In this document: piece after piece, positions 30,494 to 30,748 of the stretch | Numbering within the stretch: position 1 is the first letter of the stretch | Layout of the letters: every line of letters begins with the position of its first letter | Virus record (IMG/VR): IMGVR_UViG_2778261452_000001 | Length of the DNA: 42,376 nucleotides | Source of the DNA: a virus | Lineage: Duplodnaviria > Heunggongvirae > Uroviricota > Caudoviricetes | Reading direction: 5' to 3' (one strand) | Notes under the pieces: generated by a model | Seen by the model: only the letters and a program-made list of their open reading frames with translations | Database searches by the model: none | What the model was told of the DNA's origin: nothing | Program-made: the position numbers and the translations under genes

Positions 30494-30748
30494 TTATCGC
30501 CTTCGTCTGCGTGCCATATATTTGCGCACCGCGCGACGTGGGCAATCTGAAGCGGTTTCTTTCTGCTGCATCAATCTTGCAGCCATGCTCAAAAATGTCA
30601 GGCACAGCCGAAGCCCGGCATATAATAGCGGTTCCAGTGGCCACGTCTCATTGAGCACATATACCGCCATGAAAATCGAGTCGAAAACTATCGCCGCCAG
30701 CGATAACTTCATTGTCGAAAGTCGGCGTAGCTGCCGGAGTTTATTCAT
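30494..30748 (-). CDS. small membrane protein with poly-Arg C-terminus, overlapping end of lyz (candidate lysis accessory)
   Basis: 84-aa ORF; ATG at 30748 lies 8 nt inside lyz 3' end; two hydrophobic segments then KYMARRRRR. Confidence 0.35.
   Translation of the reverse strand: MNKLRQLRRLSTMKLSLAAIVFDSIFMAVYVLNETWPLEPLLYAGLRLCLTFLSMAARLMQQKETASDCPRRAVRKYMARRRRR

Follow-up and report, generated by a model that had tools for sequence, protein, structure and literature searches.

What is encoded by the short reading frame that opens within the last codons of the endolysin gene lyz, and does its product promote lysis or restrain it? The question arises from a stretch of DNA of 42,376 nucleotides, here called the window, which belongs to a P1/P7-type phage-plasmid. 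Around the frame it is 98% identical to the P1 and P7 records, and the window is a P7-like variant. An inspection of the letters and reading frames without database searches (the sequence-only reading) had described a minus-strand ORF of 84 codons, starting 8 nt inside the end of lyz, and had proposed that it encodes a class II holin or antiholin.

The reading frame at the end of lyz and its product

The ORF listing and the coordinates bear out the position and size of the frame (Table 1). Its ATG lies at 30748-30746 and the TAA of lyz at 30741-30743, so that the two genes overlap by 8 nt, ATGAATAA. The product has 84 amino acids, MNKLRQLRRLSTMKLSLAAIVFDSIFMAVYVLNETWPLEPLLYAGLRLCLTFLSMAARLMQQKETASDCPRRAVRKYMARRRRR. 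The frame is lydD, a gene of P1 that has already been named, annotated and characterised and is therefore not new, a point that the sequence-only reading missed. It is annotated as 'putative holin' in the P1 GenBank record AF234172 (20078..20332) and likewise annotated in P7 (protein entries AAQ13988.1 and AAQ07492.1, bacteriophage P1 / P7). The annotation dates to 2004, the experimental evidence for a pinholin to 2022 (PMC9025707). All 84 residues are identical to those of P1 and P7 LydD. The nucleotide sequence differs at six positions from P1, all of them synonymous, and at one from P7. LydD matches PHROG 21930, 'holin', over positions 1-84 of 84 (E=9.3e-59), and the exact protein sequence, named "holin", is present on at least 1000 contigs of a public collection.

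Table 1. Lysis genes and transcription signals of the window.
Feature	Coordinates	Strand	Basis
lydD, gene of the probable pinholin LydD (stop codon included)	30494..30748	-	ORF listing; P1/P7 identity; PHROG 21930; dN/dS; PMC9025707
lyz, SAR endolysin, 185 aa	30741..31298	-	Pfam Phage_lysozyme match, 1.1e-22
LPlyz, late promoter driving lyz-lydD	31386..31404	-	exact match to P1 AF234172 feature
Intrinsic-terminator-like hairpin	30461..30482	-	promoter/terminator scan and sequence
lydE ORF ('putative antiholin' in P1), 71 aa, GTG start	30429..30644	-	P1 annotation
lydB, antiholin of LydA	40240..40680	-	tblastn, 98.6% to P1 LydB
lydA, canonical holin of the unlinked dar operon	40680..41006	-	tblastn, 100% to P1 LydA
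lydC, 94 aa	41067..41351	-	

Hydropathy analysis of LydD gave two hydrophobic stretches, at residues ~15-32 (Kyte-Doolittle 2.1) and ~40-60 (1.6), the second of which (TMD2) is weakly hydrophobic and contains Arg47. The loop between them, NETWPLE, is short and acidic. The N-terminus (1-14) has a net charge of +5, the loop (33-39) one of -2 and the tail (61-84) one of +8, and the two hydrophobic segments and strongly basic tail noticed in the letters alone are thus indeed present. An AlphaFold2 model of moderate confidence (pLDDT 66) has helices at residues 3-32, 40-66 and 70-83. By the positive-inside rule, two hydrophobic helices with this +5/-2/+8 distribution of charge fit an N-in/C-in arrangement. 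A sequence search of LydD against solved structures returned chance transmembrane matches only (all E >= 0.24), a Foldseek search of the AlphaFold2 model against viral structures gave none at E <= 0.001, and NCBIfam holds no family for LydD or LydE.

The signals flanking the two genes are those of a transcription unit. The promoter LPlyz has a -22 box, AAGTGATTT, and the -10 element TATCCT. The strong terminator-like hairpin begins 12 nt past the lydD stop codon, has a 9 bp stem with 7 GC pairs followed by ATTTTTGG, and is located between the convergent units lyz-lydD and prt-pro. Promoter and hairpin together delimit a late operon of two genes, lyz-lydD. The same organisation, with lydD as second gene of the lyz late operon, the 8-nt overlap, LPlyz and the terminator, is found in P1 and P7, and the window shows no difference of substance from them. 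The Lyz protein has a SAR-like N-terminus, MKGKTAAGGGAICAIAVMITIVMG, and differs between window and P1 in two C-terminal residues, R165 and L182 of P1, both of which are Pro in the window.

The known P1 genes for a holin and its antiholin, lydA and lydB, lie ~10 kb away from lydD, as had been stated earlier. Both are 99-100% identical to their P1 counterparts and adjoin a divergent lydC, whose product is only ~31% identical to P1 LydC. Of the lysis proteins, only LydC is different in P1 and P7 according to the literature, and lydC of the window is therefore presumably the P7-type allele.

Coding constraint on lydD and the status of lydE

Several spurious ORFs of 80-140 codons share the kilobase of lydD, and the length of the lydD ORF by itself proves nothing. 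Conservation is decisive. When lydD is compared pairwise with its counterparts in P1-like elements from Cronobacter, Salmonella and Klebsiella, dN/dS ranges from 0.06 to 0.18, with synonymous sites near saturation, and the differences concentrate at third codon positions (e.g. 16/11/42 at positions 1/2/3). In all diverged P1-like elements (Cronobacter phage JK004, Salmonella contigs, Klebsiella aerogenes contigs and a faecal metagenome contig) the gene has a length of exactly 84 codons, at 63-85% amino-acid identity, and the order ssb / lyz / lydD is common to all P1-like relatives. The first 12 codons are under purifying selection as well (dN 0.04-0.12 versus dS 0.9-1.5). Both conservation across P1-like genomes and a possible interruption of the frame in close relatives had been raised by the sequence-only reading. 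By tblastn, LydD was found in 495 plasmids, 469 of them with at least 99% identity, and its frame was intact over residues 1-70 in 494 of the 495 and in all phage records; coverage refers to residues 1-70 because low-complexity filtering masks the tail. It is this pattern of synonymous differences, low dN/dS and third-position bias, rather than length, that identifies lydD as a real gene.

The opposite view, that lydD is a chance open frame and untranslated, could appeal to the abundance of spurious ORFs of like size in the region, to the many RefSeq plasmid records that list no gene there, and to the start of lydD, which has no strong Shine-Dalgarno sequence but only GGGG at -13 to -10. However, a chance frame is at odds with the dN/dS values and saturated synonymous sites, with a length held constant at 84 codons across relatives of ~65-85% identity, and with distant homologues at the same position in other phages. 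Moreover, mutant phenotypes of lydD are published. The view is already refuted, and we assign it practically no probability.

Several further observations were made on the records carrying lydD. Three singleton frameshift variants (P0005, P0006 and P0008, on a single contig each) join the N-terminal part of LydD to a C-terminus in the lydE frame; P0008 results from an indel in a T5 run within TMD2 codons 51-53. Errors of sequencing or sporadic mutations probably account for all three. In the PLSDB gene table, which is incomplete, P1-like plasmid records mostly give only 'lysozyme' at the LydD match, and lydD seems often to be unannotated in RefSeq records of P1-like plasmids. In a protein collection clustered at 90% identity, exact LydD shares one cluster with 185-aa Lyz lysozymes, a grouping most likely produced in error by the clustering. 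Between lydD and pro, the diverged P1-like elements from Cronobacter, Salmonella and Klebsiella have a ProQ-like and a RepL-like gene, neither of which P1 or the window has at this place. The ProQ-like gene (L003, 2733-3266; L006-L013, 3233-3763; L017, 2764-3315) overlaps the 3' end of lydD by 23 nt with its own 3' end, on the opposite strand, except in L017.

Another ORF, lydE, shares sequence with the 3' half of lydD, which it reads in a different frame, with the terminator and with the 3' end of pro. Within the lydD/lydE overlap, four of the five differences between window and P1 change an amino acid of LydE and none changes LydD. P7 has only a truncated lydE frame, and one to three stop codons interrupt the frame in every diverged relative (JK004, Salmonella, K. 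aerogenes and L013). The ORF continues through the terminator hairpin and its T-run, and a transcript ending there would thus lack the lydE stop codon. An exact LydE product was not found in a collection of 15 billion proteins, and removal of lydE has no lysis phenotype (PMC9025707). On the grounds of substitutions, broken frames, terminator, absent product and the deletion without phenotype, we rejected lydE as a real antiholin gene; lydE is probably not a gene.

The role of LydD in lysis

The function of LydD was addressed by Bednarek et al. (2022, Int J Mol Sci 23:4231; PMC9025707), who concluded that it is a pinholin. Cloned lyz and lydD together gave faster and more complete lysis than lyz alone, without any other P1 protein, and lydD mutants showed delayed lysis (PMC9025707). 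The effect of co-expression with lyz, proposed earlier as an experiment, is thus acceleration. Expression of LydD alone kills cells, as seen by a lower number of colony-forming units, and a P1 lydA lydD double mutant forms no plaques, while a lydA lydC mutant does (PMC9025707). The suggestion that a component coupled to lyz and distinct from lydA/lydB acts in lysis timing is supported by these experiments (PMC9025707).

The same data weigh on the possibility that LydD acts mainly as an antiholin or regulates timing, modulating LydA/LydC, and does not itself form holes. The charge of +5 ahead of TMD1 would be compatible with such a role, given that the S21 pinholin becomes an inhibitor when N-terminal positive charges are added (PMC9025707). 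LydD is also accessory and non-essential in liquid culture, and other DUF7940 cassettes (see below) have a single-TMD protein upstream of the lysozyme that could be the real holin. However, LydD speeds lysis when Lyz is its only partner and reduces colony-forming units on its own, loss of lydD delays lysis and does not advance it, and plaques are still formed by the lydA lydC mutant but not by the lydA lydD mutant. We therefore regard a mainly antagonistic role as improbable. Of the two classes offered by the sequence-only reading, holin holds and antiholin does not, as LydD accelerates lysis and is lethal alone (PMC9025707).

Equally, two TMDs with a basic C-terminal tail are class II holin-like, and the database names read 'holin', as would be expected if LydD were a canonical class II holin that makes large holes and duplicates LydA. 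Such a holin should serve a soluble endolysin, but when lyz was swapped for the canonical lambda R endolysin the contribution of LydD was lost, and cloned lydD together with lambda R in the two-plasmid system gave no lysis, yet colony-forming units fell (PMC9025707). The morphology of lysis is likewise of the SAR-pinholin type: wild-type P1 lysis proceeds by shortening and rounding of the cells, typical of SAR-endolysin/pinholin systems, and in a lydC lydD mutant it shifts to the polar rupture of canonical holin lysis (PMC9025707). No homology was detected between the LydD family and LydA (hhalign probability 0.13%). Redundancy with LydA as a large-hole holin is largely refuted by the lambda R experiments, and we consider it very improbable. 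LydA and LydC of P1 do resemble LydD in having two predicted TMDs and a lysis function and in cooperating with Lyz. Unlike LydD, they are holins of the canonical kind, able to support lambda R (PMC9025707), they are encoded ~10 kb off in other operons, and their sequences are unrelated to LydD.

P1 with a mutated lydA but an intact lydD fails to lyse E. coli in liquid culture (PMC9025707), so that LydD does not suffice for the phage in that setting. In a CRISPRi screen across the genome, neither lydD nor lydE was scored as essential (PMC10695390). For lydD, this fits an accessory, condition-dependent role.

Altogether, LydD is very probably the pinholin of this P1/P7-type phage-plasmid and acts with the SAR endolysin Lyz. 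Its class rests on the published genetics and lysis morphology; what this analysis established is that the gene is under coding constraint, that its product is identical to P1 LydD, that the signals of the operon are present and that the family as a whole is linked to SAR lysozymes (see below). According to the mechanism that we propose, lydD would be transcribed late, together with lyz, from the Lpa-dependent promoter LPlyz, and its translation would probably be coupled to termination of lyz through the ATGAATAA overlap. LydD would most likely form a helical hairpin in the inner membrane, N-in/C-in, with the basic N-terminus and the C-terminal tail in the cytoplasm and the loop in the periplasm. 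Once its concentration is sufficient, LydD would open small holes, through which the proton-motive force collapses. This collapse would kill the cell and release membrane-tethered Lyz in active form, whereas the holes would not be large enough to let a canonical soluble endolysin through. LydD would act beside the canonical holin LydA, with its antiholin LydB, and LydC, and its contribution would vary with host and growth conditions.

The DUF7940 family and the comparison with S21

LydD resembles a Pfam family of "unknown function", DUF7940 (PF25612), with 22.8 bits and E=1.4e-4, below the gathering cut-off of 27. Searched against 1.84 billion representatives, a profile built exclusively from LydD-type sequences gave just 14 clusters at E <= 0.001, among them the PF25612 members P0033 (8e-18) and P0034 (2.5e-12). 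In a word-indexed profile search, ~20 Aeromonas phage 56-type proteins of DUF7940 came up. Judged by sequence profiles, LydD is best placed as a divergent, sub-threshold member of DUF7940. Asp23 in TMD1, Arg47 in TMD2 and Arg58 at the end of TMD2 (LydD numbering) are conserved across all homologues aligned. In the alignment of 27 sequences the loop motif Pro37/Pro40/Tyr43 is invariant, but some of the remotest homologues have other residues there. The strongly basic C-terminal extension of 18-20 residues is specific to the P1 group. Most DUF7940 members are without it and have short tails, some of them acidic.

In 10 of 11 distinct contexts examined (among them loci L004 and L014-L021), the DUF7940 gene directly follows a PF00959 lysozyme gene, with an overlap that is usually 1-20 nt long (in L019, 1 nt). 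The paired lysozymes begin with a basic stretch, after which comes a hydrophobic one rich in Gly, Ala and Ser, and their N-termini are therefore SAR-like. An example is gp03 of Aeromonas phage vB_AsaM-56, whose two-helix core is homologous to LydD and whose gene stands after a SAR-type lysozyme gene. These contexts support a family-wide pairing of DUF7940 with SAR endolysins, and through them a Pfam family of "unknown function" is tied to a characterised pinholin. Often an i-spanin-like gene comes next after the DUF7940 gene. Unlike in many of these cassettes, no spanin gene comes next after P1 lydD.

The Aeromonas phage 56-type cassettes contain an additional gene upstream of the SAR lysozyme gene. 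It encodes a protein of 147-192 aa with one C-terminal hydrophobic segment (L004, 1520-1966; L014, 1538-1981; L020, 866-1444), possibly a second holin-like component that would parallel the multiple holins of P1.

The counterpart in function is the prototype pinholin, S21 68 of the lambdoid phage 21, whose antiholin is S21 71. Like LydD, it is a small protein with two TMDs and a basic C-terminus, encoded beside a SAR endolysin gene, and both do the same job, depolarising the membrane via small holes, in the case of LydD as judged from the published genetics and morphology. Homology between the LydD family and S21 68/71 was not detected (hhalign probability 0.15%); the S21 71 sequence used in this comparison has a 100% match in Escherichia phage 21, OL657228.1. 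The gene order also differs, as lydD lies downstream of the endolysin gene and the S21 gene upstream. TMD2 of LydD lacks the glycine zipper that is a hallmark of S21 68 (PMC9025707). The N-terminal charge is +5 in LydD and +1 in S21 68, and the five positive charges that precede TMD1 of LydD would in S21 make an antiholin (PMC9025707). In S21 68, TMD1 must leave the membrane, whereas TMD1 of LydD may stay. LydD is thus a functional analogue of S21 that stands outside the S21 family, and its hole-forming pathway may differ.

How far this difference goes can be stated tentatively. The conserved residues Asp23 and Arg47 would be given roles in our mechanism, and it is possible, though we think it rather unlikely, that LydD and DUF7940 represent a second, mechanistically distinct kind of pinholin, in which TMD1 is retained by the basic N-terminus and the holes depend on Asp23 and Arg47. 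In such a pinholin an intramembrane pair of Asp23 (TMD1) and Arg47 (TMD2) may replace the glycine zipper in hole formation or gating.

A weaker variant holds that Met13 may serve as a second start, yielding a short active and a long inhibitory LydD. Met13 is invariant in the 27 sequences of the alignment (close relatives and Aeromonas type), but Leu, Ile or Val takes its position in more distant LydD homologues, and a Shine-Dalgarno-like sequence ahead of Met13 was found in none of the lineages examined. Because of this, and because the N-terminal codons are under purifying selection, a dual start at Met1/Met13 in the manner of lambda S or S21 is unsupported, and the dual-start motif of S21 has no supported equivalent in LydD.

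The additions made here to what was published on lydD are modest: the membership of LydD in DUF7940, the finding that lydE is probably no gene, and the apparent lack of a lydD annotation in many records. P1 lydE is still annotated as 'putative antiholin'. For the family, the link between DUF7940 and a pinholin would improve the annotation of lysis cassettes, and its members could be called LydD-type pinholins.
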